NCBI RefSeq assembly: GCF_000009965.1
Contig: NC_006624.1
Coordinates: 480,001 to 512,000 of the forward strand
Length of the DNA stretch: 32,000 bases
Source of the DNA: Thermococcus kodakarensis KOD1
Lineage (GTDB): Archaea; Methanobacteriota_B; Thermococci; Thermococcales; Thermococcaceae
Direction: 5' to 3'
Position numbers and translations under genes: made by a program. The notes beneath the pieces were generated by a model. That model saw only the letters and a list, made by a program, of their open reading frames with translations, was not told where the DNA came from and searched no databases. Shown here piece after piece: positions 8,987 to 32,000 of the stretch (the first letter of the stretch is position 1; the number at the start of each line of letters is the position of its first letter).

Positions 8987-8989
8987 CTT

Positions 8990-9490: not shown

Positions 9491-9523
9491 CTTCTTCACC
9501 GGGAACAGAAAAGAGAGGAAAAA

Positions 9524-10651: not shown

Positions 10652-10774
10652 TCTATCACCACCGCTTGGAAAAAGGTGGGGTCCTTTAAGGACTTTGCGG
10701 AAGTTTTTCAGGCCTGTTAAAGTTCAGGCGATAAGATTTATAACTTAATCATGATTAAATCAAACGGTGATACC

Positions 10775-11868: not shown

Positions 11869-11928
11869 TGTTTCATTCAACCGACATCCTTTTATTTGGT
11901 TCACTAAAGTTCTAACGGGGATGGTACC

Positions 11929-13383: not shown

Positions 13384-13567
13384 AGTCTTTTATTTCTTTT
13401 CTCCTTATGTTTTGAGGAGTTGGCCCACACTTGTTTCCACTTGGACGTCTAATTTTGTCGCTTGAAGTACAGAATGTTCCTGGAATCACGACCAGAAACA
13501 TTTAAAACACGCTTATAGACCCCTCTCTGTTGGAACATACTGTAACTCAGCGAGAGGTGGTTGTCCG

Positions 13568-15415: not shown

Positions 15416-15425
15416 GGTGATGATA

Positions 15426-16487: not shown

Positions 16488-16518
16488 GCTCTTCTCTCTT
16501 CTTTTTGAGGTGAACACG

Positions 16519-17076
16519 ATGTTAGAGCTGATGAGGGAAGGTCAGGTTTACGAGCTCCTTCTAGTCTCAAAGTCCAACGTCACCCCCGTTGGCGTCGTAA
16601 GAAGGGGAGCGACGCTCCATTTCAAGCTCTTCCCTGGAAAAAGCTTTAGAGATTTGCTGGAAAACAACCGGATCGCCCTTCAGATGACCTGGGACGCCGA
16701 GCTCCTCGTGAAGACAGCCCTTAACCTCGACGTGGAGCTTTCCTTTGAGTCTCATGATCAGTATCGATGGATACAAGGACTCCCTGGCTGGCTGGGAGAA
16801 GCCCGGTGCAGAAGAGATGTCTGGACGGACGGGCTCGGGACTACAGAGGTTCTTAAATGTGAATTCTTCCCCGAGAAGAGGCTGGTAGGAAATGCCCGGC
16901 CAATTCCCTTTAGCAGGGCAGACTGCGTTCTTGTGGAGATGGCGGTTCTCTTCACAAGATACCTTGTCAAACCTACCTTGGAGCTTAAGAACAGAATCCT
17001 TGACCTTTACGCCCTCTACAGGCATCTCGGTGGAAACTCTGAGGCGGCAGAATACATCGTTGGACATCTCGATTGA
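16519..17076 (+). CDS. Conserved hypothetical protein, possibly DUF447 (split-barrel flavin-binding-like)
   Basis: About 185 aa. The N-terminal pattern YELLLVSKSNVTPVGVVRRGATLHFKLFPGKSFRDL recalls DUF447 proteins, but this is weak and from memory. A GAGGTGA RBS precedes ATG 16519. Confidence 0.45.
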   Translation: MLELMREGQVYELLLVSKSNVTPVGVVRRGATLHFKLFPGKSFRDLLENNRIALQMTWDAELLVKTALNLDVELSFESHDQYRWIQGLPGWLGEARCRRDVWTDGLGTTEVLKCEFFPEKRLVGNARPIPFSRADCVLVEMAVLFTRYLVKPTLELKNRILDLYALYRHLGGNSEAAEYIVGHLD

Positions 17077-17180
17077 ACCTGAATTCTGCGACTGCCGTGT
17101 TTTTCTTCTCCCCTGGTTCGAAAATAGCATCCAGAGGAAACGTTTTAAGCGGTGTGGATTTCTTATTACCCGGTGATACC

Positions 17181-19193: not shown

Positions 19194-19210
19194 CTTCCTT
19201 CCCTTCTTTT
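19164..19210. repeat. Second copy of the 47-nt CGP-CTERM tail/3'-flank block (identical to 11822-11868)
   Basis: Hand alignment shows 47/47 identity, with the hairpin at 19171-19188 followed by a T-rich tract. Confidence 0.8.
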
Positions 19211-19261
19211 ATTCCCGCCTACCGTAACTTTTATAAGAGCACCCCTCAAGTTCTCTCCAGA

Positions 19262-19338
<77 letters not shown>

Positions 19339-19552
19339 TTCTCCAGATAATAGCTTCCATGCGCGTCACCTTCTCTAAATGTTCCCGCAAAAGCTTGTTA
19401 ACGAGGGCCGACAGGCTATAACCGGCTTCTCTGAGACCGCCGACCACTTCTTCATCAAGGTACAAATGAACACGCGTCTTTCGCCTTCTTTCGGGCCGTT
19501 CTCGTTTGTGAGAGCCGCTATTTTTGTGGGCCATATTGGGCTTTTGTCCCAC
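19339..19552 (-). pseudogene. Probable N-terminal fragment of a split SSV-type integrase, int(N), with an RHH-like N-terminus
   Basis: The frame starting at GTG 19552 or ATG 19534 (MAHKNSGSHKRERPERRRKTRVHLYLDEEVVGGLREAGYSLSALVNKLLREHLEKVTR...) has no stop before the tRNA. It continues through the tRNA's complementary strand (WRMAGPAGFEPATSGLEG...). This is expected when attP lies inside the integrase gene. Confidence 0.45.
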
Positions 19553-19602
19553 TCTTTATCACCGAGGTCATATAGAGTATTATGATATATATGCATAGGG
19601 CA

Positions 19603-19956
19603 TCACCAGAGCTCTGCAACTTTGCCTATCTCAAACTTCCACATCTTTGCAAGATTCTCCATCCTCTCGGAGAAGCGGTCGGAGAGCTTATACACTCCAG
19701 CGTCCTCTCTGACCATACCGAGGGCCAGGAGCTTTTTCATAACCCTAAAGTATAGGACCTTGTCAGCACCGTCCACGCCGAGGGCTTCTTGGTATTCATC
19801 CTTGAACAGGCCACCGTTCTGCTTGAGGTAATCAACAACTTTCCTGGCTATTTCCAGAGTCTTGCCATCAAAGAGGAGTTCAAGAACACTGTTCGGCGGC
19901 TGGTACACGGGAACTCGGATCGAAACATAGTCAGGGAACTTCCGCCTGCGCGGCAT
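19603..19956 (-). CDS. Hypothetical protein, possible winged-helix (117 aa)
   Basis: GGGGTGGT RBS before ATG 19956. A central segment (ARKVVDYLKQNGGLFKDEYQEALGVDGADKVLYFRVMKKLLALGMVREDAGVYKLS) looks like a wHTH. Confidence 0.55.
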   Translation of the reverse strand: MPRRRKFPDYVSIRVPVYQPPNSVLELLFDGKTLEIARKVVDYLKQNGGLFKDEYQEALGVDGADKVLYFRVMKKLLALGMVREDAGVYKLSDRFSERMENLAKMWKFEIGKVAELW

Positions 19957-20134
19957 TATACCACCCCTATTATTTCGTTTACAACATTCATATTTTTCAC
20001 CGTCCAGGACGCTTCGGAAGTTGGGAGGAATAGGTACAGGGCTTGTATATTATCCTTGGTTTTCTGGCGAATAAGGTTGGTTGTACGGGAAAGGTCCTTG
20101 GAAAAGAATGATACTATACGGGAAGTGTTAGTAT

Positions 20135-20362
20135 TCAGCATGGCTTGGACACCACCCCTATAACTTTAGGACCGCTGAATGGTTCAATATTCACCTCATC
20201 CACCATGACCTCATCGAAGCATTGTTCGAAGTATTCTAATGCCAACCTTTCTGCACCTTTGTAATCCCAAGCAATTACAAGAACCTCCCAAACAGCTTCT
20301 TCCGCAAACGGGTCCAAATCTCTTGTCCAGACAGTTGCCTTGTATAACTTCAATTCACTCAT
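20135..20362 (-). CDS. Hypothetical small protein (75 aa)
   Basis: A GGAGGTGA RBS lies 7 nt before ATG 20362 (MSELKLYKATVW...). The track's longer version starts at 20383. Confidence 0.5.
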   Translation of the reverse strand: MSELKLYKATVWTRDLDPFAEEAVWEVLVIAWDYKGAERLALEYFEQCFDEVMVDEVNIEPFSGPKVIGVVSKPC

Positions 20363-20369
20363 CGCCCCG

Positions 20370-20948
20370 TCACCTCCCTCCAACCGCGTAGGCTGGCACC
20401 TGAGCCGGCTTCGACAAGTTCACACCGAGCAGGAGGCCGAGGTCATCCGCAAACTCCCCAAAGTCCCTGCTGACGACCACATCATCGAGGCTGATGACGG
20501 CGTAGTAATCTCTTGCCGAGCCACCGCGCCTGTACTCAAAAGAGGGCTCCACATTGGCGACATTGAACATCACGAACCGCTCCTGGCCCACTTGAATGAA
20601 GTAATAGAGCGGGAGAGTGAGGACTTCTGAAAGCGCCCTGAGCCTCTGAAACTGCCACCCATTCACGAGAAGCTCCCTCTTTGCCCATGAATCCTTAGCC
20701 ACGCGCCAACTAATGAACTTGAGTTCAAAAGCCGCTAAAGGAACCTCAGAATGCTTTCTGAACACAAGGGCATCGAGGTCATAGAGCGAGAACTGACCAG
20801 GAAGGGCCTCTTCTATCAGAGTGCTGAACAAGTACTTGTTCTCTGCACTCCTGATTTCTCTTTGCATATAATCGAAAAAGGGCCTGTACACGTGGCGGCC
20901 GTACCTGGCCGCCTGGCGGATCATTTCCGCTCTTGCCGCGACCATCAC
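20370..20948 (-). CDS. Hypothetical protein with PD-(D/E)xK-like motif (192 aa)
   Basis: 4-nt ATGA overlap with the upstream gene. The motif YDLDALVF-x10-AAFELKF has the D...E-x-K spacing typical of restriction-endonuclease-fold nucleases. This is a motif-level call only. Confidence 0.5.
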   Translation of the reverse strand: MMVAARAEMIRQAARYGRHVYRPFFDYMQREIRSAENKYLFSTLIEEALPGQFSLYDLDALVFRKHSEVPLAAFELKFISWRVAKDSWAKRELLVNGWQFQRLRALSEVLTLPLYYFIQVGQERFVMFNVANVEPSFEYRRGGSARDYYAVISLDDVVVSRDFGEFADDLGLLLGVNLSKPAQVPAYAVGGR

Positions 20949-21259
20949 GCCCTCACCCCGACGAACTGCTCCAGCGTCGCCTGGCCCTCGTGCGGCCTGA
21001 CGCGACGGAGCTCCTCGCGAAGATCCTCAACTTTCTGGAGAACCTCAAGCCTGTTCAGGCGCTTTGGAAAGAGTATTGGAACCCCCTCGCGCTTGGCCTC
21101 GCGCTCCGAGAAGACATGTATCTCAACATCCTCGGAGCGGAGCCGGCCCTCGTGGAGCATCAGAGCGGCCTGAGCTATCGCAACCTCCCAAGCCGCGAGC
21201 ACGTGAGGGGCTTCAGTGACGAACTGCTCGCCGTCGATGATGATGAGGTACTCGGTCAT
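20945..21259 (-). CDS. Hypothetical protein (104 aa)
   Basis: Translationally coupled, with 4-nt overlaps at both ends. No motif recognised. Confidence 0.55.
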   Translation of the reverse strand: MTEYLIIIDGEQFVTEAPHVLAAWEVAIAQAALMLHEGRLRSEDVEIHVFSEREAKREGVPILFPKRLNRLEVLQKVEDLREELRRVRPHEGQATLEQFVGVRA

Positions 21260-21480
21260 AGCCGTCCCTCCTGCACTTTCTTCTGAATGAAGCTGTCCTG
21301 ATACGCGTAGGCGTACATCTTCGTGTTGATCTTGCCCGCCTGAATGTTGAAGTCAGTCCAGGCCTCTGCGATGAGACTCCTTGCAACATAGCCGTCCCTG
21401 CTCATCTCGAACAGGTCAATGACATCATTCAGCATGCCTCTCAGTCTGAGAAGCTCAGTGTAAAGCTCCTCTTCGTTCAT
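21256..21480 (-). CDS. Hypothetical small protein (74 aa)
   Basis: ATG 21480 overlaps the upstream stop (ATGA). The track's version starts at GTG 21486. Confidence 0.5.
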   Translation of the reverse strand: MNEEELYTELLRLRGMLNDVIDLFEMSRDGYVARSLIAEAWTDFNIQAGKINTKMYAYAYQDSFIQKKVQEGRL

Positions 21481-21668
21481 CCCCACACCCCCCGGAGCGT
21501 GAAGCAGTACTCGTCCTTCACAACCGCGCCCTTGCGCCCGAGCTCGTCGAGCGCGCTGGCAACCTCTTTCGCGGGAAGGCCAGTCCTCCTGACCAGTTCG
21601 CTGAACGTGGCAGGGCCATCCTCGAGGGCCCTCTGGATTAGAAAGGCTGACGGGATGCGCGCGATCAT
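21477..21668 (-). CDS. Small winged-helix DNA-binding protein (63 aa)
   Basis: The pattern FSELVRRTGLPAKEVASALDELGRKGAVVKDE is HTH plus wing. Its ATG overlaps the PCNA stop codon (ATGA). Confidence 0.6.
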   Translation of the reverse strand: MIARIPSAFLIQRALEDGPATFSELVRRTGLPAKEVASALDELGRKGAVVKDEYCFTLRGVWG

Positions 21669-22426
21669 GAGCGACCCTCCTCGACTCTTGGTGCGATCAG
21701 GAAGCTGACCTCACCGGCATCCCGAACCATGTACTTCAGAAGCAGTGGTATGTCAAAGCCAAACCGAATGATGACTTCATCAGCATCAGCGAGACTCCTT
21801 AGGATGTCCTCGAGATATGCAACCCCGTACGCACTCTTCGCCTTTGTCATCTTGTGCTCCAAGTCAAGGAGACCTGGATCCTCCATAGTGAGAACGGTTC
21901 TAACCTCGGAGTCGTTGCCCTCCGCCTTGAAAGTCAATTTCTCAGGGGTAGCCATGAAGTAGATTGAGTCGGAGACAAGCTTTGCGGCCTTAACGGCTCT
22001 TTTCAGAGCTCCAGCGAGCACGACGGCCTTGACAGTCCATGGCAGGCTCGGAATTTCAATCTCAGGAGTATTGGCGTCTATTAGAGGGAGCTTGAACCAC
22101 GTGTTCTCATCACCGAGCAAGCCGACCTCGAGGAAATTCTCTCCACCCTTGCGGAGAACAAGCGTATCCCTGCTCCTTGCAAGCTTAAGAACCTTCAGGA
22201 AACGCTTTAGATCAAAGGCTATCGCTTCCTCACTCTCGACGGAGTACTTGGAGAAGAGCATTTCTGGAAGGTTGAGGTCAACGAGGACGACCCTGCTCGG
22301 GTCTATAGCACGCATCTGAATTCCTTCCATGTTAACCTGGAATACTGCCTCATCGAAGAACTTCTCAAGCGTGGCTATCAGGCTCTCAAACTCTCTAGCC
22401 GAATCAAACACAATCTCAAAAGTCAT
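21665..22426 (-). CDS. pcn: DNA polymerase sliding clamp (PCNA), element-encoded paralog
   Basis: 253 aa from ATG 22426: MTFEIVFDSAREFESLIATLEKFFDEAVFQVNMEGIQMRAIDPSRVVLVDLNLPEMLFSKY... ending in FLIAPRVEE. This is the characteristic archaeal PCNA N-terminus, two-domain length and C-terminal LAPR-type tail. The track ORF starts 15 codons upstream at a GTG. Confidence 0.88.
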   Translation of the reverse strand: MTFEIVFDSAREFESLIATLEKFFDEAVFQVNMEGIQMRAIDPSRVVLVDLNLPEMLFSKYSVESEEAIAFDLKRFLKVLKLARSRDTLVLRKGGENFLEVGLLGDENTWFKLPLIDANTPEIEIPSLPWTVKAVVLAGALKRAVKAAKLVSDSIYFMATPEKLTFKAEGNDSEVRTVLTMEDPGLLDLEHKMTKAKSAYGVAYLEDILRSLADADEVIIRFGFDIPLLLKYMVRDAGEVSFLIAPRVEEGRS

Positions 22427-22557
22427 GCCATCACCTCCTCGGAAGAAGATGAAGAGGAGGGCTCGTCGCACTCATTTAGATACTCTTTCGTGTCGTCGGC
22501 GAAGACGTCAATGTCATCGTAGTCTATCTTCACGAAAACAAACGAATACTCTCTCAT
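22423..22557 (-). CDS. Small acidic/Ser-rich ORF (44 aa), below the track threshold
   Basis: MREYSFVFVKIDYDDIDVFADDTKEYLNECDEPSSSSSSEEVMA. Its ATG overlaps the upstream stop and its TGA overlaps the PCNA ATG, so it fits the coupled chain exactly. Confidence 0.4.
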   Translation of the reverse strand: MREYSFVFVKIDYDDIDVFADDTKEYLNECDEPSSSSSSEEVMA

Positions 22558-22799
22558 GCCCTCACCTCCCTGCGCTCGATCTTCTTCAGCAGGTCTTCAA
22601 GCGCGTCCGCGTACCCCGTCCAGTAGGCCGCGTTCTCGCGCTCTCCCCTCGCAGAGAGGGAGAACGCCGTCTCCCTGGCGATGCTGGCCTCGCGCTCGAC
22701 GTACTCCAGCAGGGTCGGCACTTCCTCGACCTGCTCCAGCACCGCGTCCAGCTTGCGCTTCTCCAAAGCGACCCAAGACCAGATGGCGGACTCACTCAT
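22554..22799 (-). CDS. Hypothetical helical protein (81 aa)
   Basis: 8-nt overlap with the upstream gene. The antisense (+) ORFs here give Arg/Pro/Ser-rich nonsense, which supports the minus frame. Confidence 0.55.
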   Translation of the reverse strand: MSESAIWSWVALEKRKLDAVLEQVEEVPTLLEYVEREASIARETAFSLSARGERENAAYWTGYADALEDLLKKIERREVRA

Positions 22800-23037
22800 T
22801 CTCTATCACCTCCACGCCGTCGATGTCAAAAACCACTCCATAGTCCACGACCTCCCTTGCGAGCAACTCCCCCTTGAGCATCTCAATGGCCTCATCAGGG
22901 TCGTTATTGAGGAGCTCCTGGAACTCCTCGACGTCAATTCCCGGGGCTACACTCGAAAGGGCTTCAAGAGGCACGGCGGCCTCAATCTCCAGTCGAATAT
23001 TCACCCACTTGCCCATTCCTCCTCCCTCCTTAGCCAT
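22792..23037 (-). CDS. Hypothetical acidic protein (81 aa; alternative start 23016)
   Basis: ORF within the coupled chain. An AGGAGGGAGGAGGA stretch precedes the internal ATG at 23016, so the true start is uncertain. Confidence 0.5.
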   Translation of the reverse strand: MAKEGGGMGKWVNIRLEIEAAVPLEALSSVAPGIDVEEFQELLNNDPDEAIEMLKGELLAREVVDYGVVFDIDGVEVIENE

Positions 23038-23246
23038 ACGCGGAACAGCTTGTAGCTCGACTCGACCGAGCGAACAACGAAACCATCACTTTGCAGGGCT
23101 TCAACCGCCTTGAGGAAGCCCTGAAAATCCTCCCACGAGGCTGGCGTCGTGAGGCTCAGCACTACGGCACCAGGAACCTCCGAGGGCTTGGTGATGCTCG
23201 TCTTCGGGCCGAAGTCAGGAGAGTTCTCCTGGAAAGGCTCAGACAT
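23001..23246 (-). CDS. Hypothetical protein (81 aa from the internal ATG)
   Basis: The track ORF 23001-23339 overlaps the upstream gene by 100 nt. Starting at ATG 23246 (MSEPFQENSP...) leaves only an 8-nt overlap. Confidence 0.5.
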   Translation of the reverse strand: MSEPFQENSPDFGPKTSITKPSEVPGAVVLSLTTPASWEDFQGFLKAVEALQSDGFVVRSVESSYKLFRVWLRREEEWASG

Positions 23247-23484
23247 TGGAAGCCACCCCCATAGGGCTAAATCTGAAAACAAGCGCGTCACGGTTCCGGT
23301 GGAAGTAAATACGCTCCAACTGGAACCCCTCCGCACCAAACACGGTCTCCAGATACACTAGCTCGCTGGCCTTGACCCCGCCATAGACTACCACTTCCAC
23401 GCCGTTGCTGGCCGGCACTACATCAGCCCGGTTCGGAAAGGCCTTCACAACCTCCTCCCGGGCATACTCAAGCCCCGACATCAT
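23239..23484 (-). CDS. Small conserved element protein (81 aa), paralog of 27342-27572
   Basis: 4-nt overlap with the Rep stop codon. By hand alignment its C-terminal 46 residues share about 17 identities with the 76-aa ORF at 27342-27572 (GxExxxxGG...E...E...G..L(E/D)RIY(F/Y)HR..D.L..RF). Confidence 0.65.
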   Translation of the reverse strand: MMSGLEYAREEVVKAFPNRADVVPASNGVEVVVYGGVKASELVYLETVFGAEGFQLERIYFHRNRDALVFRFSPMGVASNV

Positions 23485-25568
23485 ACACGACCACCTCCCG
23501 TGACGACATACGTGTCAACAATCTCAAACCCAAGCTCCCTCGCTCGGGCCTTGTTCAGAGAATAGCGCCCATCCTTCGGGAGAATCACCAACTCCCGCTC
23601 AAGCTCAGTGATAACCTCTCTGAGCTCCTCCTCCTGGACATTGAGGATCTTCAGAAGTTCGTCAAACGTGAAGCTGTTCACTGCAAGGACATCCACAACC
23701 CGCTCAGCGAGCTTGAGGTCAGCCTCAATCTTTGACTCCGAGACCCCGAGGAGATCAAAGAACTTATCGAGGGTTGTAACGGCAACCCTAGGCCTTGCTG
23801 AACCAAGTCTCCGTTGTACAGGGTAATCCCAATTAAGAAGATCGCAAAGAGTCTTGAAATTATAAACATCTAGTCTGGTGTCCGCCCTGATGGCTTCAAG
23901 TAGAGACTTCTTGATTATGACTTCATTACCTCTCACGACAAAGTATGGACTAAGCTCATGCTCCAGCACATAGAAGACTCTGTCTTTTGGAGTTGTGGAA
24001 CTGTCCGCGTAGCGGGAATAACGGAAATAAGTCTCATCAAAGTGCCTCCTAAGCCATGTGACAACCTTTTCCCTCTTCTCATCATCAAGCTCCTCGCGGT
24101 AGTTATCCACCAGCTCGGCATTCTTTAGCCACTCAGGGATGTCAAGCCCGGCATACTCGTAAAGCCTCTTCACAAGTTTCTCGGCAAGATCTTCCCACGG
24201 TAAGGCAAGGAGTTCAGGCTCCTCTTTAATCACGTTGAAAACAAAGCGTCCAATATCAGCGAGGTAATCTAAGTACGGGACAATCGAAGTCTCAAAGTAG
24301 TGAGCGATCTCTGGAGGTATCTTATCCACCTTCGAGAACTCAACGGTGAAAAAGCGCCTCCTAATGGCCTCATCCTTAATCCCTGGCATATTAGCGTTGA
24401 AAGCAAGAGTTGCAAGGGCAGGATACGGCCTCCTGATGTTCTTCCCAACACTCTTGGTTCTGAAAAGGTATTGCTCGGGAGCGTTTTTAATGAGGTTGAA
24501 GAAATTGTCCCCCTCATCTCCAAAGTTCAGGGACTTGAATAGGGGCGCCGCCTCATTGATGACAATAACAGAAGCTACTGAAGAGATTGTTTCGCCAAAG
24601 TTGTAAACGCTCCAAGAAGAACCAATAGAGGTCACCTTACCAAGCGGCTTCCAAAGGTATGAAATTACCTTGGAGATGACCTGAGTCTTTCCTGTCAGAG
24701 ATTCGCCTATGAACAAGAGATAAGGGATCCAGCGGCGCTTCTCGTTGTAAACTTTATATGCATAACCGAGGCCCGCAACTAAGGCCCACTTGAATATCTT
24801 TCCAAACTTGACCGACCAAGACTCATACCATCTCTTATCAGGATTGGCTTTAACGATCTTATCTAAAAGCTTCAACGCGTCATAAATCCTGACGCGAGAA
24901 GGCATTTGTGTATCAAAGCCGTACGCCTCAAGTTGCCTAGTCTTGGGGTTCCAGTAAATTCCGGGGGCCAGAGGTTCATGCACATGCTCAACAGCCTCAA
25001 GGAGGCGAGCAAGGGCAAGAATAGTATCTATCGCTTCCTTTGCGAGAGCCTCACTCAGAAAGAGACCTCCAACCTCATTCAACTTGTCGAGAAGCTCAAC
25101 CTTTAAGGCAGGTCCAAGCTCTCGTATGTAAATCCCTGAGAGAGCTCTCTCGGCGATGACCCACCGATACAGGGTTGGAGCATCCATGTTGGCCTCCTCA
25201 GCGGCCAGCTCGATGGTGAAGTCGTGGACTTCTCTTATTGCAACAGGTACAAAGTTAAAGACAGTCCTGTCGTGAACAGCAAACTCTTCTTCAACTTCCT
25301 CGCCAGTATCTTCATCTTTATATTTCCTCTTCCGGATCCTGTAAAGCGCAACGCGGGGGTTCTTGTAGTCGAGGACCCAAAACTCCCTCCCCTTACGCTT
25401 GAAGAAGATTGTATACGGGTCGGGATCGTGAGGCCAGCCCCTGAACTCTGCAGGGAGAAACTCCATGTCGAGTTCTCCTGAGTCCTTGCTCGCTTTTGTA
25501 AGGAGGTCTCCGAATTTTATGACGATCGGTGAAAACTGAATGTTGTCACTGTTCCACTCTTCGTCCAT
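23481..25568 (-). CDS. Replication protein with SF3-type helicase P-loop domain and C-terminal winged helix (695 aa)
   Basis: Walker A LLFIGESLTGKTQV, Walker B-like SVIVINEA and motif C-like LAFNAN follow SF3 order and spacing. The C-terminus (FTFDELLKILNVQEEELREVITELERELVILPKDGRYSLN) is wHTH-like. I did not recognise the N-terminal 280 aa (no clear primase motifs). Confidence 0.72.
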   Translation of the reverse strand: MDEEWNSDNIQFSPIVIKFGDLLTKASKDSGELDMEFLPAEFRGWPHDPDPYTIFFKRKGREFWVLDYKNPRVALYRIRKRKYKDEDTGEEVEEEFAVHDRTVFNFVPVAIREVHDFTIELAAEEANMDAPTLYRWVIAERALSGIYIRELGPALKVELLDKLNEVGGLFLSEALAKEAIDTILALARLLEAVEHVHEPLAPGIYWNPKTRQLEAYGFDTQMPSRVRIYDALKLLDKIVKANPDKRWYESWSVKFGKIFKWALVAGLGYAYKVYNEKRRWIPYLLFIGESLTGKTQVISKVISYLWKPLGKVTSIGSSWSVYNFGETISSVASVIVINEAAPLFKSLNFGDEGDNFFNLIKNAPEQYLFRTKSVGKNIRRPYPALATLAFNANMPGIKDEAIRRRFFTVEFSKVDKIPPEIAHYFETSIVPYLDYLADIGRFVFNVIKEEPELLALPWEDLAEKLVKRLYEYAGLDIPEWLKNAELVDNYREELDDEKREKVVTWLRRHFDETYFRYSRYADSSTTPKDRVFYVLEHELSPYFVVRGNEVIIKKSLLEAIRADTRLDVYNFKTLCDLLNWDYPVQRRLGSARPRVAVTTLDKFFDLLGVSESKIEADLKLAERVVDVLAVNSFTFDELLKILNVQEEELREVITELERELVILPKDGRYSLNKARARELGFEIVDTYVVTGGGRV

Positions 25569-25802: not shown

Positions 25803-25860
25803 GCTTTGTGTGGACCCTTTAAGACAGTATTGCTCAAAGGTGAGAATTTACAAATTCAAA

Positions 25861-26251
25861 TAGTAAGGGTGTCACAGTCTGGCCAGGTGTGACGCAAGTG
25901 TGACGGATGTGACGGGGGTCTAAGGGCTTTAAATCCTGAAAAAAGGAATCTGCGGGGAGTTTAGTGTCACACATGTCACACCCCATAAAAATGTGCCTAT
26001 ATTATTTCACATAGCAACTCTTCAATATTCGTTATTATGACAATATACTATGGTTTAAATTATAGAATATTTGTCATTATGACAAAATACCGCGCAATCT
26101 GAAATTAATACCTTTATATATTTTTATAGAGTGTGACACTGTGACATTAAAGAAGACAGGAGAATGGCTTATTTCAAAAATAAAGCGAAAAAACCCTGCG
26201 TCACACCCGTCACACCCCGTCACAGTTGGTGGAACTGTGACACCCTTACTA
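25861..26251. promoter_or_regulatory. Dyad-symmetric iteron field; putative replication origin or control region of the element
   Basis: An 18-bp perfect inverted repeat, TAGTAAGGGTGTCACAGT, forms the two ends (25861-25878 and 26234-26251). Twelve TGTGAC/GTCACA cores are present. TGTGACG x3 lies at 25888, 25899 and 25908, mirrored by CGTCACA x3 at 26199, 26208 and 26218. A TGTCACA pair at 25965 and 25974 is mirrored by a TGTGACA pair at 26132 and 26140. The central AT-rich region of about 145 bp contains the palindrome TTGTCAT-T-ATGACAA (26071-26085) and a direct repeat ATTATGACAA (26034 and 26076). Confidence 0.6.
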
Positions 26252-26671
26252 ATCATTATTGTAAATGCGCTCAAGTATCTTGCGCTCCTGCTGTTCGTCA
26301 ATGGCTTCAAATTGACTTTTTGGGGATAGGGTTGGCCCCATCTTGTTCGTTATGAGCGACTTGACATGGATGTAATCCACAAGCAGAATCTCTACAAAAT
26401 CGCCGACTTTAAGACCGAACCTGTCCCTGACGGGTTTGGGAATTGTGAAAACTCCACGATCATACAGCTTTGCTACCGCAAAAACGCGACCGATTATTTT
26501 GCGATTTTGATCTGGAATCCTTATTATTACTATAACAAAGTCTCCATCCTGCAAACCAAAGTATTCTCTGATATAAATAGGAACCATAACCCTACCCTGA
26601 GGTCTTACTCTGCTCTGAAACTTGGCTAGTGGCTCGACTACCTTTGCCTCTTGGTGATCCTGCTCGGTCAT
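26249..26671 (-). CDS. Tandem AbrB/SpoVT (swapped-hairpin) domain DNA-binding protein (140 aa)
   Basis: It has two SpoVT-AbrB-like units: RVRPQGRVMVPIYIREYFGLQDGDFVIVII and KLYDRGVFTIPKPVRDRFGLKVGDFVEILLV. Its first 19 codons form leader copy 1, which is repeated at 28749-28817 and 31411-31478. Confidence 0.75.
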   Translation of the reverse strand: MTEQDHQEAKVVEPLAKFQSRVRPQGRVMVPIYIREYFGLQDGDFVIVIIRIPDQNRKIIGRVFAVAKLYDRGVFTIPKPVRDRFGLKVGDFVEILLVDYIHVKSLITNKMGPTLSPKSQFEAIDEQQERKILERIYNND

Positions 26672-26684
26672 TGGTCTCAGCTCC
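26617..26684 (-). repeat. Leader repeat copy 1 (RBS, ATG and first 18-19 codons of the AbrB-like gene)
   Basis: GAAACTTGGCTAGTGGCTCGA (26617-26637) is identical to 28749-28769 and differs at 2 of 21 positions from 31411-31431. The invariant 13-mer GCTAGTGGCTCGA is at 26625-26637. It encodes M-T-E-Q-D-H-Q-E-A-K-V-V-E-P-L-A-K-F-Q. Confidence 0.8.
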
Positions 26685-26821
26685 GTTGGTTGTTTATCCC
26701 GTATCTATTCCGTATTTGTTATGGTTCTAATAAACTCTATGGTAGAAAAGGTTTGCGAAATTTTCTCCGCTATGGGAAGTTCCCCAAGGAGTGTTGAGAG
26801 AAAAGATAAAGAATTGGGTCT

Positions 26822-27340
26822 TTACTTGGGGAGGCCAAGGTTTCTTTTGAGTTGGGTGTCAATTTCCTCGAGGCATGCGTCACATATCCTGTCCTGTTGT
26901 TCTTGTGGGAAGTCTTTTAGGGCCTTGGCCATGGCTTTGTTGTACATATCCTCTAGTTTCCTAATCAAGGCGAAGATTTGTAGCAGGTGTTTGTAGTCTT
27001 GGGGTTCTATGTACAGCGAATAAATGATGGAACACTCTTTTTTCTGGTTTTCACAGTAGTATTTAGTAGCCTTTAGGATAAAGTAGAGGCTGTTGCCGAG
27101 GCATTGGAGTTCCATTAGGTAAAAGATGTATTTTCCTCCAGAGGTGCCGTCAGGATTGCGCTCAGTCCCTTTGAGTTCTATCTTTGCTATTTGGGTGGGG
27201 AGGAGGGTTATGTAGTCTTCGTAGGGTTCGTCGAATTCCCATTCTATGAGTTGTTTTAGGTGTTGGACTGTCTCAATAGTGTATGTTGTGGAGGTTGCAA
27301 GCTGGCTCCATACTTCGAATATTTTCCTCACTGTGCTCAC
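26822..27340 (-). CDS. Hypothetical protein (172 aa)
   Basis: GTG start one nt after the stop of the 76-aa gene. It is AT-rich, with several Cys residues (CLGN, CENQKKEC, CDAC). No family recognised. Confidence 0.5.
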   Translation of the reverse strand: MSTVRKIFEVWSQLATSTTYTIETVQHLKQLIEWEFDEPYEDYITLLPTQIAKIELKGTERNPDGTSGGKYIFYLMELQCLGNSLYFILKATKYYCENQKKECSIIYSLYIEPQDYKHLLQIFALIRKLEDMYNKAMAKALKDFPQEQQDRICDACLEEIDTQLKRNLGLPK

Positions 27341-27341
27341 C

Positions 27342-27572
27342 TCAGTCTCCTGGTTTCTTGAATCTGATTGCGAGGGTATCGCTGATTCGGTGATAATATA
27401 TTCTGTCGAGGACCAGTCCGCCTTTCCAGGCCGCGTTTTCTATTTCCCTAAATTCTTGGCCAGAAATGCCTCCATGGATGTGAATCTCTATACCTCCATC
27501 CGTGATTCCTACATGCCCCTTGGTGGACACTATACGAGATACAATGTCTTGGAGTTCTTTTATAGAATACAT
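27342..27572 (-). CDS. Small element protein (76 aa), paralog of 23239-23484
   Basis: See the hand alignment for 23239-23484. The shared C-terminal signature is LDRIYYHRISDTLAIRF versus LERIYFHRNRDALVFRF. Confidence 0.65.
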   Translation of the reverse strand: MYSIKELQDIVSRIVSTKGHVGITDGGIEIHIHGGISGQEFREIENAAWKGGLVLDRIYYHRISDTLAIRFKKPGD

Positions 27573-27695
27573 GGGATCACCTCAATTCTAGAACAATGAG
27601 TGGTAGCTAATAAGACTTTTGGGTTTCATTATATCTCGTATCAGATCAAAACAGTATTAAGGAGTAAATATCATTAAGAGTTTTGGTGAAGTTGT

Positions 27696-28703
27696 ATGGT
27701 GCGTGCTGTATATGAAATTGAAATTGGGGGGAAGATCTATACAATACCTTTCATAAACGGTGGTTCTGCAGGATATATTGTTGAAGAAGCCGAAGAGAAA
27801 AACGAACCGGCCGCATACATAGTCCCATTATCTTCTGGTCTTTTGGAAGTTATGATTGATTTAACAACGACTGAATTTGCACTGACTAAGGAGACTCAGG
27901 AGGTACTTAGGAAGCTGGTGCGAGAACTTCATAAAAAAGCTCTCTCAAATGATAATGAGCATGTGCCTAGAAATGAGTTGTGGTTTGAGGTCAACAGTGA
28001 TTGGGTGTCCTTTTCTATACCTAACAGCCTTGTTGATGAAGCGGTTGCCAATGTTGCAAAAATAGCACTTAATCCTGAGAATTGGAGAAAGATAACTGTT
28101 CTGAGGTGCCCTGTGTGTGGCCGTAGAGTTAGGGAAACTGAAACAGATTTAATCGGTATCTTCCCTGATGATGAGAATATTCAGATTTTATTCTGTCCTG
28201 AATTTGATCAGCGGTTTAGGGGTCAACATGTTGTGGCGTTCAAGTGGGATGGAGAGTGGAAGCAACCAAGTTATTTTTACCATAATCCCGAGCGGGACGG
28301 TTTGATTGAAGTCAAGAAAGGTAGTTATGACAATGTGACTCTTTACCTCTTGTACTTGGAGGCAATTTCAGGAGACAATGTTAATTTCAAACGTCCTAAC
28401 CTTGAGTGGATGAGGGCAAAGATCCTCTGGAAAAATGGGGAACCTGTTGGGTACTATGCATACTCGGTGGATGCCCATAAGTATCCGACACTTCATCAAA
28501 TATTCGTGAGGAAGAAGTTTAGAAGACAGGGGCATGCTACAATGATGCTCAATGATTTTCTTAACTCGTTTCCGGGAACTGTGCTGATAGAAGATCCTAA
28601 TGAAGCCACTCAAAATCTTCTTGTAAAGCTTAGCCTTGCAAGGCGCGTGGATAGAGGAATTGAATCAACCGGACGCATTATGTTTCTCCCTGGTGGAATA
28701 TAG
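27696..28703 (+). CDS. Fusion protein: unknown N-terminal domain with a Cys pair/zinc-ribbon-like segment plus a C-terminal GNAT acetyltransferase-like domain (335 aa)
   Basis: GGTGA RBS. The C-terminus LHQIFVRKKFRRQGHATMMLNDFL fits GNAT motif A (R/Q-x-x-G-x-G/A). The middle segment has CPVCGRRV ... FCPEF. It is the only plus-strand gene in this part of the element. Confidence 0.6.
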   Translation: MVRAVYEIEIGGKIYTIPFINGGSAGYIVEEAEEKNEPAAYIVPLSSGLLEVMIDLTTTEFALTKETQEVLRKLVRELHKKALSNDNEHVPRNELWFEVNSDWVSFSIPNSLVDEAVANVAKIALNPENWRKITVLRCPVCGRRVRETETDLIGIFPDDENIQILFCPEFDQRFRGQHVVAFKWDGEWKQPSYFYHNPERDGLIEVKKGSYDNVTLYLLYLEAISGDNVNFKRPNLEWMRAKILWKNGEPVGYYAYSVDAHKYPTLHQIFVRKKFRRQGHATMMLNDFLNSFPGTVLIEDPNEATQNLLVKLSLARRVDRGIESTGRIMFLPGGI

Positions 28704-28713
28704 AGTATATTTC

Positions 28714-28803
28714 CTATCTTTTCCTCTCACCGTGGTCTAACCTGGCATGAAACTTGGCTAGTGGCTCGATCACTCGCGTTCCCTGCTCGTCTTGGCCGGT
28801 CAT
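28714..28803 (-). pseudogene. Leader repeat copy 2: truncated AbrB-like 5' fragment (29 codons)
   Basis: MTGQDEQGTRVIEPLAKFHARLDHGERKR*. The ATG lies 7 nt after the stop of the 459-aa nuclease gene and shares the GGAGCTGA RBS-like block with copy 1. The nucleotide repeat spans 28749-28817, with the invariant 13-mer at 28757-28769. No AbrB domain body follows. Confidence 0.45.
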
Positions 28804-28809
28804 TACTCT

Positions 28810-30189
28810 TCAGCTCCTTTTGTCTTTTGGTGTGGTTTTGGGTGTGAGGAAGATTTTTATGTATTCGTCAATGTATTTTGTTTTGAATTTGCTTTCTAAT
28901 TCGCGTACGGCTTTTCCACAGGTCTCTCTAAACATGGGTATCTGTTTTTTGTCTATGATTTTTATCCTCCAGGCGTGTTTGTGTCTGTGATTTCTTTTGA
29001 GGTACCCTTTTAGGGGCCCTGTTGAGAGTCTTTTCAGTGAATCATTAACTCTTTTCTTGATTAGATCTCTGTATTCTCCGTGTAGGAACTGGTAGATTGA
29101 GTAGGCGCTTGAGGTGTATAACTCGTGTGCAAGCTCTCCTGTAGTAAATTCGCGTTCGGTTAGGGTGTTCATATCAACTTCAAGATCGATTAGCATAATT
29201 AACTCGGCTCTCATTTCGTCTAGGGCTTTGCCAGCTTTCAGGAGTAGGATGTCTTCTGAGATTCTAATTTCGTCTTCCTCTACTTCGTATTTTCCTGGAG
29301 CTATCTTTTCGAGGGTGTTTAATAGTTGTTCCCATTTTTGGTCTTGCTCGTTGGGATCATCGATGGGCAATTCGCTCTTTTTGATTATTTTTCCTTTTGG
29401 GATGATGATATCATCTTTAAAGACCATCCCTTTTGTTGGCAGTTCTTGTCCTAATGTTGCAAATTCTATTAGTTTGTTTATGATGTGGATTTGAAAGATC
29501 TCAGCGTCGTCATTTGGATCAAAGGGGAAGAGTACATAAGAAGGTTTGTCTTTTAGTCTCCATTTTATTGGGAATACTTGGTTTAATTCGGGGTTTTTGT
29601 ATTCTCCTTTTACTAACTCTATTTCTTTTACAACGGGATTGGTGGGGTCTTCGGATTTATCTGGTGGATTTATCTCGATGATTCTAATGATTTGGATCCG
29701 GGTCTCGTTGGAAAGCGTTTCGTTGTTATCTATGTCTTTATAAGAAAAGTATGAGACGTCCGCTTTGAGTTGAGTGGGACGTTTTTTGAAGGGTATTCTT
29801 GCTTGGTCAATTATTATTTCTGGATGCTCTATCAAGTAGAGATATTTTTGTAACTGTTCATGATTTGCTTGAAAGCTTTTACATTCAAAGACTACAATGT
29901 GTTCTTTCTCATAATTCGGAAGGATTATGTCGGGAGTTACCCCTTTCCCATTCAGGTCTTCTTTCTCTACATTCCTAAAATGGATGTGTGCTTCTATGCT
30001 GTTTTGTACTATTCTATAACCTTTTTTATAGAGATCGTTGGGGAATTTGGGTGTTGGGGTAGCAAGGTTTAGGATGATATTCATCAACTTAGTATGTGCT
30101 TTCTGGAATTTTGATAACTCTTCAAGAGTACGGATTGGGGTACCTTCATATTTAGATAGTTTAAGATATTTATCTAATCCTGATGCCAT
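28810..30189 (-). CDS. RecB/Cas4-like PD-(D/E)xK nuclease-domain protein with a long unknown C-terminal region (459 aa)
   Basis: I place the start at ATG 30189 (GAGGTG RBS 7 nt upstream); the track ORF extends to 30243. Nuclease motifs occur in order: IEAHIHF (E), GVTPDIIL (hhhD), VVFECKS (E-x-K) and QLQKY (QxxxY). The basic C-terminus has an HTH-like segment (FTTGELAHELY...RVNDSLKRL). The gene overlaps the upstream gene by 20 nt. Confidence 0.65.
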   Translation of the reverse strand: MASGLDKYLKLSKYEGTPIRTLEELSKFQKAHTKLMNIILNLATPTPKFPNDLYKKGYRIVQNSIEAHIHFRNVEKEDLNGKGVTPDIILPNYEKEHIVVFECKSFQANHEQLQKYLYLIEHPEIIIDQARIPFKKRPTQLKADVSYFSYKDIDNNETLSNETRIQIIRIIEINPPDKSEDPTNPVVKEIELVKGEYKNPELNQVFPIKWRLKDKPSYVLFPFDPNDDAEIFQIHIINKLIEFATLGQELPTKGMVFKDDIIIPKGKIIKKSELPIDDPNEQDQKWEQLLNTLEKIAPGKYEVEEDEIRISEDILLLKAGKALDEMRAELIMLIDLEVDMNTLTEREFTTGELAHELYTSSAYSIYQFLHGEYRDLIKKRVNDSLKRLSTGPLKGYLKRNHRHKHAWRIKIIDKKQIPMFRETCGKAVRELESKFKTKYIDEYIKIFLTPKTTPKDKRS

Positions 30190-31333
30190 ATTGGGGCACC
30201 TCGAGATAAGCTTTGGCATCATAAGTCTGTTGGATGTTTGCAAGGAGCCTTAGTGCAGTGTTCCCGCAGGAGCCCTTTGGGAGATATAATCTAGCCCACC
30301 AGGGAGTAACTTCTAACGAGAAATTATCTCCATTGTGAAGGTCAGTTCCGACTATAATATACATGTCTTTTTCTACTTGTTTTGCAAAGCCCCAAATCCT
30401 GAATGGCTCTTTGGGTGTTGTAATTGCTTTTGCAAAGAGATCTAAATCAGAGATTTCTTTTTTGAACTCATATACGAGTGGGATTTTCTTTTCCCAATCC
30501 CATGAGGAGTAATCAATAAGAGAGTCCTCTATGTATTTCAAGTTGTTTCTATATGTGTGTACAACACTATCGATAAATTCCAAATGTTCATCGAAGGATG
30601 TTCCTTTTGCTGTGAATTTACCCCAATAATACAGATCTTCTAAGACGAATTTGTCGGGGTACTCTTTCTCAACGAGTTTAATCCCAATTTTTGTTAGTCT
30701 GGTCATGTATCGGAACTTCTCATGCTCTTCAACGATCTCAAGGAGATCTTTAACCAATTCACCTGAGCCATCAATTCTTAGTTTGCTAACTTTGTTCTCC
30801 TTTTTTTCTTCCTCGGTGCTAAAAGCAGTCTCGTCATGTTTAATGGAGATGCTTCTAAGATAAACATCTTTAAAGGATATATGCATGAATTTCTTTAGAA
30901 GCTTGTTTGATAACCATAGTTTATCTAATCTCGATTTTATTTGGCTAACAAATTTGTTATAAGCACTATCAACGTCTTGGGCCTTGTCGAGAGTGAATAC
31001 TCTCCAGAATCTCGAATCTTTGGCATCTAAGAAGAAGTGAACTTGAAGTTTTTTATCCTTATCCGTGATATCTATTCTGTATAGTAGGTAATCTTCAAGA
31101 GGTTCTACTTTAATTGAATCAAACAAGCCTCTCAGGACGTATTTGAGGAATTTTGGTGAGATATTCGACTCAATGACATACGTTTTAACAAGATTTTGGT
31201 CTGGTTCCAATTTTTGTTCTTCCAGTATCTCAGCATAACTGCGAGCCATGTTTACCTCTAACCATTCGTAGAGATCTCCACGAGTCTTAATGTCTTGCAC
31301 ATGTGTTTGCTGTCCTAATGTTTGAGGACTCAT
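30170..31333 (-). CDS. Hypothetical protein (387 aa), partner of the nuclease gene
   Basis: A long clean ORF in very AT-rich DNA, which makes a chance ORF unlikely. I saw no P-loop or other recognisable catalytic motif. It is translationally coupled to the nuclease gene. Confidence 0.62.
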   Translation of the reverse strand: MSPQTLGQQTHVQDIKTRGDLYEWLEVNMARSYAEILEEQKLEPDQNLVKTYVIESNISPKFLKYVLRGLFDSIKVEPLEDYLLYRIDITDKDKKLQVHFFLDAKDSRFWRVFTLDKAQDVDSAYNKFVSQIKSRLDKLWLSNKLLKKFMHISFKDVYLRSISIKHDETAFSTEEEKKENKVSKLRIDGSGELVKDLLEIVEEHEKFRYMTRLTKIGIKLVEKEYPDKFVLEDLYYWGKFTAKGTSFDEHLEFIDSVVHTYRNNLKYIEDSLIDYSSWDWEKKIPLVYEFKKEISDLDLFAKAITTPKEPFRIWGFAKQVEKDMYIIVGTDLHNGDNFSLEVTPWWARLYLPKGSCGNTALRLLANIQQTYDAKAYLEVPQYGIRIR

Positions 31334-31360
31334 ACTTCATCACTCTAAATCTTTGATGAT

Positions 31361-31465
31361 TCAAATCTTAATTTTTTTGGTTAATGTTAATATGTCCTTG
31401 ACTCCATTCTGCAACTTCGCTAGTGGCTCGACGACTCTGGCTTCGCTGGTGTCCTGGTCGGGCAT
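31361..31465 (-). pseudogene. Leader repeat copy 3: truncated AbrB-like 5' fragment (34 codons)
   Basis: MPDQDTSEARVVEPLAKLQNGVKDILTLTKKIKI*. The nucleotide repeat spans 31411-31478, with the invariant 13-mer at 31419-31431. It sits 27 nt upstream of the 387-aa gene and downstream of a promoter-like AT-rich region. Confidence 0.45.
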
Positions 31466-31523
31466 TGGCTCACCCCTCTATGTTCTATCAAAATCAGAAT
31501 ATAATGTCTCCAAACATATTAAA

Positions 31524-31550
31524 ACGTTTTCCAGCGTTTGGCAACGTTTA
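31524..31550. promoter_or_regulatory. Three 10-nt-phased (A/G)CGTTT repeats in a divergent intergenic region (candidate operator)
   Basis: The units are ACGTTTTCCA, GCGTTTGGCA and ACGTTTAAAA. CGTTT occurs at 31525, 31535 and 31545, exactly 10 nt apart, and the first unit lies inside the palindrome AAAACGTTTT (31521-31530). The site lies between leader copy 3 (minus) and the 118-aa gene (plus). Confidence 0.4.
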
Positions 31551-31602
31551 AAAATTAAATCGCACAATAAAAGAGGGGAGTAACTAGAGAGGGGGTTAGT
31601 GC

Positions 31603-31959
31603 ATGCTCTCGGATGATAATAATTGGGTTAGTGGTTTTAATCCTTTCGATGAGGGTAGCAAGGAGGTCCAGCGCGAGATAGAATATAGCTTCTTCAAAAA
31701 GGCCGTTGTTGAGTTGCTACTGATCCCTCTGCTCGTGTGGTCTATAATGGTGCTCACTATAACTCCTTTCGGAGCCGATCCCAATTTTGAGTTGTCCTTT
31801 AGAAGTTTCCACGTTAAGGGATCTATGTTTGTGGTAGGGCCGTTTATAGTTATGCTGTTGTTCCTCTGTAGATTCCCAAGTGTATGGTATCAGATGTATC
31901 AGTTTAAACTCAAGTATATGGAAACGATATTAGAATCTCTTAAGCGTTCTCAAGAGTAG
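31603..31959 (+). CDS. Small membrane protein (118 aa, two predicted TM helices)
   Basis: GAGGGGG RBS and hydrophobic stretches VVELLLIPLLVWSIMVLTI and MFVVGPFIVMLLFLC. No family recognised. Confidence 0.5.
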   Translation: MLSDDNNWVSGFNPFDEGSKEVQREIEYSFFKKAVVELLLIPLLVWSIMVLTITPFGADPNFELSFRSFHVKGSMFVVGPFIVMLLFLCRFPSVWYQMYQFKLKYMETILESLKRSQE

Positions 31960-32000
31960 CGCAAAGCTGAGTATTCCCACAGGTACTGTCTTATAAATAT

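Follow-up and report, generated by a model that had tools for sequence, protein, structure and literature searches.

TK0593 and TK0592 of Thermococcus kodakarensis KOD1 as a candidate two-gene nuclease module carried by mobile elements of archaea and bacteria

Overview

The gene pair TK0593 and TK0592 was analysed within a stretch of 32,000 nucleotides (nt) of Thermococcus kodakarensis KOD1 (contig NC_006624.1, positions 480,001 to 512,000 of the forward strand). This whole stretch is referred to as the window. The upstream gene TK0593 encodes protein A and the downstream gene TK0592 encodes protein B. The pair is located in the variable part of TKV3, which is a pT26-2-type integrated element of this archaeon. 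We propose that the pair is an undescribed two-gene nuclease module of mobile elements that probably serves defence or exclusion, and the probability of this reading is put at roughly 50%. The function in defence or exclusion is unproven and is drawn from the gene neighbourhood only.

Archaeal immunity past clustered regularly interspaced short palindromic repeats (CRISPR) and restriction-modification is poorly charted. The pair is a candidate on account of its obligate pairing, its horizontal spread over both prokaryotic domains, its absence from PADLOC, and its neighbours, which include cyclic oligonucleotide-based antiphage signalling system (CBASS), Hachiman, TIR, OLD, and restriction-modification genes. 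If the defence role is true, the pair would provide a new type of sensor or regulator in nuclease-based defence, where partner A has a confidently predicted architecture and no characterised relative. The pair is present, and TK0593 is expressed, in the most genetically tractable hyperthermophile, which makes deletion and challenge work feasible.

Gene coordinates and the A/B junction

Both genes are encoded on the minus strand. According to the open reading frame (ORF) list, gene A covers positions 30170..31333 (387 amino acids, aa; 45.8 kDa) and gene B covers positions 28810..30189 (459 aa from ATG). The sequence of TK0593 is identical to BAD84782/WP_011249548 and its computed mass agrees with the tabulated mass (PMC2962436). 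The sequence of TK0592 is identical to BAD84781. The ORF of gene B reaches 30243 (28810-30243, minus strand, 477 aa) if a TTG start is used. The start was assigned to the ATG at 30189 because this codon is preceded by GAGGTG (30202-30197) with a spacer of 7 nt and because the N-termini of the homologues P0022 and P0023 coincide with it.

The A/B junction (30170..30202, minus strand) consists of a 20-nt overlap (30170-30189) and the Shine-Dalgarno-like GAGGTG (30197-30202), which lies inside the end of gene A. The overlap together with this motif implies that A and B are translationally coupled. The earlier reading of this DNA, which was made from its letters alone (the sequence-only reading), had described two ORFs that overlap by 20 nt in AT-rich DNA, and this description holds. 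The GC content of the pair is 0.38 compared to 0.54 for positions 5000-24000 of the window. In two Thermococcus hosts (this window and L001, 10001-12515), the pair has a GC content of 38-40% while their elements have 50-54%, and the pair of Methanotorris igneus has 29%. TK0593 is 49-50% identical to Methanococcales proteins. The composition fits a recent acquisition of the pair from a low-GC donor of the Methanococcales type.

Pairing and taxonomic distribution

The sequence-only reading had called the upstream protein unknown and the pair undescribed, but both proteins belong to existing families. Protein A is assigned to the uncharacterised Pfam family MJECL33 (PF25924) and protein B to the uncharacterised Pfam family MJECL32 (PF27326) in precomputed annotation, and their homologues are assigned likewise. 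Protein A also matches phrog_22469 (function not assigned) with E = 4.9e-53. Both Pfam families are named for adjacent ORFs of the large extrachromosomal element of Methanocaldococcus jannaschii. The pair belongs to these families and does not differ from them at the family level, and the Pfam entries carry no functional annotation. The literature search for MJECL32, MJECL33, TK0592, and TK0593 found no discussion beyond pull-down listings of TK0593.

Hidden Markov models (HMMs) of both families were run on 8 genome loci, 31 metagenome loci, 1 viral contig, and several context look-ups. Gene A adjoins gene B in 43 of the 46 sequence sources, from both archaea and bacteria, so that the co-occurrence that the sequence-only reading had proposed to look for was found. 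The remaining sources are L036 (the contig is too short), L016 (two copies of another ORF flank A), and L040 (B is missing). Searches that start from B homologues recover A directly upstream. The pairwise identities of A and B are correlated with r = 0.95 over 464 pairs. A and B form an obligate unit.

In the hydrothermal metagenome contig L016, the A homologue P0005 lies between two near-identical 432-aa ORFs (461-1756, 2093-3232, and 3259-4554). The 432-aa ORF has no Pfam match and is unrelated to B. It may be an alternative partner or the product of a rearrangement.

The archaeal hosts of the pair are Thermococcus, Methanotorris (two copies), Methanocaldococcus, several haloarchaea, Methanoperedens, and Methanonatronarchaeum. 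The bacterial hosts are Enterococcus avium, plasmids of the Bacillus cereus group, Lysinibacillus, and Metabacillus, an acidobacterium, and an armatimonadete. The M. jannaschii homologues are 49% (A) and 35% (B) identical to the proteins of T. kodakarensis, and are encoded in the same order with an identical overlap. The search of A and B against 50,697 phage records by tblastn gave no match, and IMG/VR contains a single contig with the pair, which is a duplicate of the Enterococcus locus. The pair is therefore not a typical virus cargo, the PHROG match notwithstanding.

Two diverged copies of the pair are found in M. igneus (L010, 10001-12527, and L046, 8001-10377). One copy belongs to a pT26-2-like element that also carries PCNA and an integrase. 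The other copy is chromosomal and lies by a gene with an HFX_2341_N/winged-helix domain, a 1101-aa UvrD/RecD-like helicase, and a TPR protein.

Gene A precedes gene B in 41 loci. In most of these, the stop of A and the start of B overlap by 1-35 nt, and the largest gap is 13 nt; three related loci give an A-to-B distance of 68 nt by the automatic start call. An upstream inhibitor and a downstream toxin with overlapping genes are the typical arrangement of type II toxin-antitoxin (TA) operons. The pair could accordingly be an addiction module in which B would be a DNA-cleaving toxin and A its stoichiometric inhibitor, such that loss of the element would kill the cell and any antiviral effect would be secondary, via abortive infection. 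The constant location of the pair on mobile or variable DNA and the impaired growth upon TKV3 deletion (bioRxiv 10.64898/2025.12.08.692931, citing earlier work) are also in favour of addiction. However, the gene order is reversed in two loci (L006 and L043), and the properties of protein A described below speak against a type II antitoxin. We consider the addiction module unlikely.

Protein B as a predicted nuclease

Protein B is very probably a PD-(D/E)xK nuclease, as judged from its motifs and its sub-threshold profile matches. The nuclease core motifs (29842..29997, minus strand) consist of E66, D87, E102-x-K104, and Q112xxxY116. They lie in the four strings IEAHIHF (residues 65-71), TPDIIL (85-90), VVFECK (99-104), and QLQKY (112-116), which the sequence-only reading had pointed out and whose key residues are conserved throughout the family. 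In the alignment of 25 homologues, K104, Q112, and Y116 do not vary, the conservation of P86 and D87 is 90% or higher, and position 102 is either E or D. The D...(D/E)xK motif is present in the bacterial copies too.

The profile HSDR_N_2 was matched by 8 of the 25 B family members when they were scanned singly (best E = 1.4e-4, 22.4 bits). With the family consensus, the score for HSDR_N_2 is 21.3 bits and lies below the cut-off of 25; the consensus also has sub-threshold matches to DUF234, McrBC, and NucS_C. Single weak matches of family members were obtained for McrBC (C-terminal nuclease part), DUF234, YhcG_C, Mrr_cat, VRR_NUC, NERD, and SfsA. The matches to HSDR_N_2, DUF234, McrBC, NucS_C, YhcG_C, VRR_NUC, and SfsA all map to the motif segment of B; those to Mrr_cat and NERD are weak, come from one member each, and were reported without position. 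Every family that was matched in this way is a PD-(D/E)xK family.

The sequence-only reading had placed B in the RecB/Cas4 branch of these nucleases. The QxxxY motif with its invariant Q112 and Y116 agrees with this placement, but the closest profile is HSDR_N_2 and the Cas4-type cysteine cluster is absent. No Cas4-type four-cysteine Fe-S cluster and no Cas_Cas4 or PDDEXK_1 match were found for B with Pfam and NCBIfam, and C103 is the sole conserved cysteine near the motifs.

Most B homologues are about 290 aa long. The longer B of T. kodakarensis contains an insert of about 110 aa (residues ~251-360; 29110..29439, minus strand), which is found only in Thermococcales and Methanococcales homologues and appears as an alignment gap in the ~290-aa homologues. 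The insert is modelled with a predicted local distance difference test score (pLDDT) of 76-94 over most of its length. The Foldseek search of the insert gave 3jsy_A (probability 1.00, root-mean-square deviation 3.7 over 92 columns) and 6j3l (probability 0.98), and one B family member has a weak match to the Pfam family RL10P_insert. In its model, the insert resembles the insertion domain of the archaeal/eukaryotic ribosomal stalk protein uL10/P0. The sequence-only reading had described about 330 unrecognised residues in B, and this description has to be narrowed since they contain the insert with the P0-like fold. The presence of a ribosomal-protein domain within a nuclease of a mobile element is unexpected.

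The C-terminal region of B (residues 361-459; 28813..29109, minus strand) is basic, with an isoelectric point (pI) of 10.2 and 26 K+R against 10 D+E. It is modelled as helix, hairpin, and helix with pLDDT of 70-89. Its Foldseek matches to the MarR family are weak (probability 0.3-0.44). The sequence-only reading had noticed a basic, helix-turn-helix-like end of B. Its basic character is borne out for the last 99 residues, and the region may be a winged helix-turn-helix DNA-binding domain according to its model.

The layout of B is similar to that of the winged-helix fusion type IV enzymes DpnI and HhiV4I, which have an N-terminal PD-(D/E)xK domain followed by a C-terminal winged helix (PMC11037411). 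B could thus be a methylase-less restriction enzyme, either type IV-like or sequence-specific, with A as its specificity or activating subunit. This would be a sub-case of the defence reading. It is in line with the best Pfam similarity of B, which is to the restriction nuclease domain HSDR_N_2 and also to McrC and Mrr, with the absence of a methyltransferase linked to the pair at the loci inspected for this point, and with GmrSD and an EVE-domain gene as neighbours in two loci. However, the known winged-helix fusion type IV enzymes are single polypeptides that act alone, whereas B almost never occurs without A and has an extra middle region, a P0-like insert (in Thermococcales), and an obligate partner of 360-400 aa. 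Moreover, the winged-helix assignment of B is weak, and B has no sequence match above noise to DpnI, Mrr, or MspJI-type readers. A restriction enzyme of this kind is therefore regarded as decidedly improbable.

The order E...PD...ExK...QxxxY is common to B and to HSDR_N_2 (PF13588), McrC, Mrr, the NucS C-terminal domain, and DUF234. In contrast to these, B reaches only 13-22 bits (gathering cut-off 25) and is accompanied by neither the helicase/ATPase module of a type I R protein nor a McrB-like GTPase partner.

Protein A as the partner

No P-loop, helicase, methylase, or other catalytic family was found in A with Pfam, NCBIfam, PADLOC, and PHROG profiles or with the family consensus, which agrees with the lack of such signatures in the sequence-only reading. 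No characterised sequence family was found for A, even from the family consensus. The AlphaFold2 (AF2) model of A is confident (pLDDT 89, predicted template modelling score 0.89) and exhibits three alpha+beta domains. In this model, the elements of domains one (residues 49-129) and three (residues 286-370) follow each other as beta-alpha-beta4-alpha, as they do in TBP-like folds. The three domains were aligned pairwise by hhalign with probability below 1%, which gives no sign of an internal duplication in A.

The Foldseek search of A against the PDB gave local matches only, where the N-terminal TBP-like domains of RnlA are the best (probability ~0.9, template modelling score (TM) ~0.16). The search against viral models gave giant-virus TBPs, RNase LS-like proteins, and the RnlA/LsoA N-terminal domain. 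TBP-like domains bind the substrate in RnlA (PMC8266594) and RNase H3 (PMC3710099), and fusions of such domains with Schlafen nucleases of defence occur as well (PMC13056530). Based on its model, A is a candidate nucleic-acid-binding or regulatory subunit.

Protein A has 26 invariant residues including K50, E55, D103, R108, D137, D331, H333, C356, R362, and D372. Its most conserved block (30248..30343, minus strand) consists of D331-L-H333-N-G-D and S-C356-G-N-T-A-L-R362. The residues D331, H333, C356, G357, N358, and R362 are invariant in 20 mainly archaeal homologues. The block is also recognised in the bacterial copies, as VDMHNGN / SCGNTVLR in E. avium, VDLHIGE / SCGNTALR in Acidobacteria, and IDLHLWQ / TCGNTIHR in B. 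cereus.

Several candidate assignments were rejected. The C356-x5-R362 segment was considered as a phosphatase/ArsC-type CX5R P-loop, but R362 lies in a predicted helix and there is no cradle loop; it was rejected because the helix begins two residues after C356 and the domain is antiparallel alpha+beta, not Rossmann-like. A caspase-like His...Cys dyad was rejected on fold grounds. A relationship of A to sliding clamps was rejected with Foldseek probabilities of 0.05-0.14 for the DNA polymerase III beta clamps. The HMGB1 and Rad50 coiled-coil matches from PDB-sequence profile searches with the pair were rejected as low-complexity/helical noise.

The properties of A bear on the addiction module. 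RnlA, the best structural match of A, is part of a TA system (PMC8266594). However, A is a large (387 aa), well-folded protein with a higher conservation than B, whereas type II antitoxins tend to be small and labile and to evolve fast. The 26 invariant residues, with the D-x-H / C-G-N-T-x-x-R block among them, suggest an activity beyond inhibition, and no antitoxin-type DNA-binding domain was found in A with Pfam.

TK0593 has been listed by two independent papers in pull-downs of the His-tagged proteins Cdc6, Fen1, RPA2, and GAN with MASCOT scores of 73-153 and 2-5 peptides (PMC2962436, PMC3152336). The mass-spectrometry peptides mean that the protein is made. TK0593 is either a sticky or abundant protein or associated with DNA or the replisome. 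The latter would be expected if the pair were a DNA-processing module for the life cycle of the element (replication, recombination, or repair) that combines a nuclease with a DNA-binding or clamp-like accessory protein. The same explanation is favoured by three pT26-2-type elements in which the pair lies among the replication-type genes PCNA, Toprim, and the Rep/helicase homologue of t26-22p (PMC2926602). Foldseek also matches A weakly with the beta clamps and with a phage protein that resembles RdgC (TM 0.25, probability 0.8), which points the same way. However, the MASCOT scores are low and TK0593 came down with several baits that are unrelated to one another, which is expected of a sticky or abundant protein, and the low probabilities of the beta-clamp matches tell against a clamp-like role. 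The pair is also absent from pT26-2 and most of its family (PMC2926602), and it is present in chromosomal defence islands without an element backbone and in an integrative and conjugative element (ICE) that has its own Rep. The DNA-processing module is thus given a small chance, below that of addiction.

Comparison with known systems

The system RnlA/LsoA (RNase LS, anti-T4 RnlAB/LsoAB) is similar to the pair, as modelled, in its tandem TBP-like domains combined with a nuclease, and also in its two-gene operon and its defence or mobile context (PMC8266594). RnlA differs in that a HEPN RNase forms one protein with its TBP-like domains and that its partner is a small antitoxin, whereas the nuclease of the pair is a separate PD-(D/E)xK protein and A has a third domain and no HEPN motif. 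Neither a C-terminal HEPN RNase with an Rx4-6H motif nor a match to the RnlA Pfam family was found in A. The sequence similarity of A to RnlA/LsoA is undetectable, and the structural match is local and limited to the N-terminal TBP-like domains.

Hachiman (HamAB), Gabija (GajAB), PARIS (AriAB), Septu (PtuAB), Kiwa, and Shedu are similar to the pair as small nuclease operons in defence islands or mobile elements. In contrast to Hachiman, Gabija, PARIS, and Septu, the pair has no ATPase or helicase partner. The models of PADLOC-DB v2 (including Hachiman, Gabija, Septu, Shedu, Kiwa, PARIS, Lamassu, and PDC candidates) gave 0 matches for A. The matches of B to the same models are at noise level only (Cas6_IIIa with E = 0.0019 and LmuC with E = 0.028). 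The sequence-only reading had likewise found that the pair does not correspond to Hachiman, Gabija, Septu, Shedu, Kiwa, or PARIS.

Genomic neighbourhoods

The pair is a cargo of integrated plasmids, ICEs, megaplasmids, and defence islands. In Salinigranum marinum, the pair is flanked by a serine recombinase on one side and an MmeI-type restriction-modification enzyme on the other side, and CBASS and an SNF2/PLD gene lie further out. Two restriction-modification-type genes and insertion sequence (IS) elements are found in the metagenomic archaeon L012, and two ThsB-TIR genes in the haloarchaeal contig L013. The locus of the acidobacterium (L006) contains a GmrSD-Schlafen gene, an SMC-like ATPase with a phosphoesterase (Metallophos), FitA/PIN, and two transposases. 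The B. cereus plasmid pBFR_2 has hamAB (Hachiman) at about 1 kb from the pair and a MazF toxin. The large extrachromosomal element of M. jannaschii has an OLD-type endonuclease, EVE and PIN genes, and VapBC. In E. avium, the pair is cargo between DUF961 and FtsK/Rep of a Tn916-like ICE. The 149 further neighbours include 5 integrases, 3 resolvases, OLD/GajA, type II methylases (MTase_II), and mad3.

About 14 contexts were inspected one by one, and at least 7 of them have known defence genes at no more than 8 kb from the pair, where one of these genes is a PLD nuclease. The pair is hence often located beside known defence genes, a proximity that the sequence-only reading had suggested examining and that is given here as descriptive counts. 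The neighbours also include TA genes (VapBC, MazF, and FitA/PIN), which adds to the points in favour of an addiction module. Around the pair in the Thermococcus and Methanotorris elements lie small ORFs of no recognisable kind together with PCNA, integrases, and regulators.

Proposed function of the pair

By analogy, the pair would work most like other two-gene nuclease systems of defence islands. A and B would be produced in a fixed proportion through translational coupling and would act as a complex. As a PD-(D/E)xK DNA endonuclease, B would be the effector and would stay bound to DNA through its basic C-terminal region, which may be a winged helix. A, which is larger and more conserved, would recognise the target or trigger and license or restrain B; its three alpha+beta domains would be of the TBP-like kind that binds nucleic-acid substrates in RnlA and RNase H3. 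Incoming foreign DNA from a virus or a competing plasmid would then be cleaved, and the outcome would be defence or exclusion to the benefit of the carrier element.

A broader form of this proposal is that the pair is an undescribed immune system common to archaea and bacteria, in which the three-domain, TBP-like A with its invariant D-x-H / C-G-N-T-x-x-R site would be a nucleic-acid sensor of a new class that licenses B. The origin would then possibly be archaeal, and A might sense, for example, replication intermediates or RNA-DNA hybrids of the invader. We advance this form tentatively and hold it to be clearly less probable than the general reading, though ahead of addiction.

Several findings weigh against a role in defence or exclusion. 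All matches of B to nuclease families score below the Pfam gathering thresholds, and the AF2 model of B has pLDDT below 50 at residues 1-226 and does not confirm the nuclease fold. The structural matches of A have TM of only 0.13-0.25. None of the PADLOC models gave a match to the pair. The evidence from the neighbourhoods is descriptive, with counts that lack a background rate or an enrichment statistic, and the Thermococcales and Methanococcales elements (this window, L001, L010, and L050) have no recognisable defence neighbours. A evolves more slowly than B in 97% of the pairs, which is unusual for a sensor that faces viral escape. T. kodakarensis KOD1 is naturally competent and is routinely transformed, so that the pair cannot block the uptake of DNA in general. 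The low-score co-purification of TK0593 with Cdc6, Fen1, RPA2, and GAN could point to DNA metabolism.

The comparative-genomic case is solid, but the pair is one among many unvalidated candidates. If the pair serves addiction or DNA processing instead, this would still account for a cargo that recurs in pT26-2-type elements and in the variable, AT-rich part of TKV3. This part affects genome stability at high temperature.

The host element TKV3

The pair was placed in the variable region of TKV3 because of the tRNA-Arg(TCT) gene at 19262-19338 (plus strand) and the features of the Thermococcus guaymasensis locus of the pair, which consist of pT26-2 core domains, Toprim, and an integrase. The tRNA-Arg(TCT) gene is the sole tRNA gene within the window and probably marks the attachment-site end of TKV3; with this end, only the part of the window at 19.3-32 kb belongs to TKV3. 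The sequence-only reading had taken the host element for a provirus. This has to be corrected, as the element is a pT26-2-type integrated plasmid and not a demonstrated virus (PMC2926602).

In pT26-2, t26-19p is directly followed by the AbrB gene t26-20p and the Rep-like t26-22p without the pair, and most members of the pT26-2 family also lack the pair (PMC2926602). The pair thus represents an insertion in the pT26-2 backbone. A 2025 preprint maps HICR2, a region that is rich in AT and prone to denaturation by heat, to the variable region of TKV3, where it may coincide with TK0592-TK0593, and other such regions hold OLD and McrBC defence genes (bioRxiv 10.64898/2025.12.08.692931).

AbrB-derived repeats and other features of the window

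A family of direct repeats of 68 nt has three copies on the minus strand (26607-26674, 28739-28806, and 31401-31468), and the latter two bracket the pair. The bracketing by the so-called leader copies 3 and 2 had been reported from the sequence alone and is reproduced here. The 68-nt leader corresponds to the 5' part of the coding sequence of an AbrB/SpoVT gene (MTEQDHQEAKVVEPLAKF...), where it covers the first ~20 codons (MxxQDxxxxxV[VI]EPLAKF). The AbrB/SpoVT-family gene itself is located at 26249-26671 (minus strand; MazE_antitoxin 25.6 bits, cut-off 24.7). Leader copy 3 belongs to a 34-aa ORF upstream of the pair (MPDQDTSEARVVEPLAKLQNGV...; 31361..31465, minus strand), which is a truncated AbrB 5' end and is preceded by GGGGTGA. 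Leader copy 2 belongs to a 29-aa ORF downstream of the pair (MTGQDEQGTRVIEPLAKFHARLDHGERKR; 28714..28803, minus strand), which is a second truncated AbrB 5' end. Each of these remnants keeps its own start codon. In T. guaymasensis and in a related metagenome contig, two AbrB paralogues of full length stand in tandem, and a remnant upstream of A is absent. The flanking remnants look like either a recombination scar from insertion of the cassette between AbrB paralogues or a reused promoter/leader.

The Rfam scan of positions 26000-32000 of the window gave no match, and the scan for promoters and terminators gave signals that are no more frequent than in shuffled controls.

The GNAT gene (27696-28703, plus strand, 335 aa) has an Acetyltransf_1 match of 29.8 bits (cut-off 20.7). 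The AbrB-type regulator and the GNAT protein that had been named as neighbours of the pair are thus both above their Pfam thresholds. The GNAT gene lies on the opposite strand and is wedged between the pair and the remaining minus-strand operon. Its acetyltransferase domain is confined to residues ~243-292, and the N-terminal ~230 residues have no assignment. The N-terminal part contains a CPVCGRR...FCPEF motif, possibly a zinc ribbon.

The intergenic region at 25846-26266 of the window separates the AbrB gene from the Rep-like 695-aa gene, which is a homologue of t26-22p. This region contains inverted repeats of 49 nt (76% complementary) and 17 nt (94%) and repeated GTCACAC(C/A) units (GTCACACATGTCACACCCC / GTCACACCCGTCACACCCC). 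The inverted repeats and the units could be an operator or origin-like iterons of TKV3.

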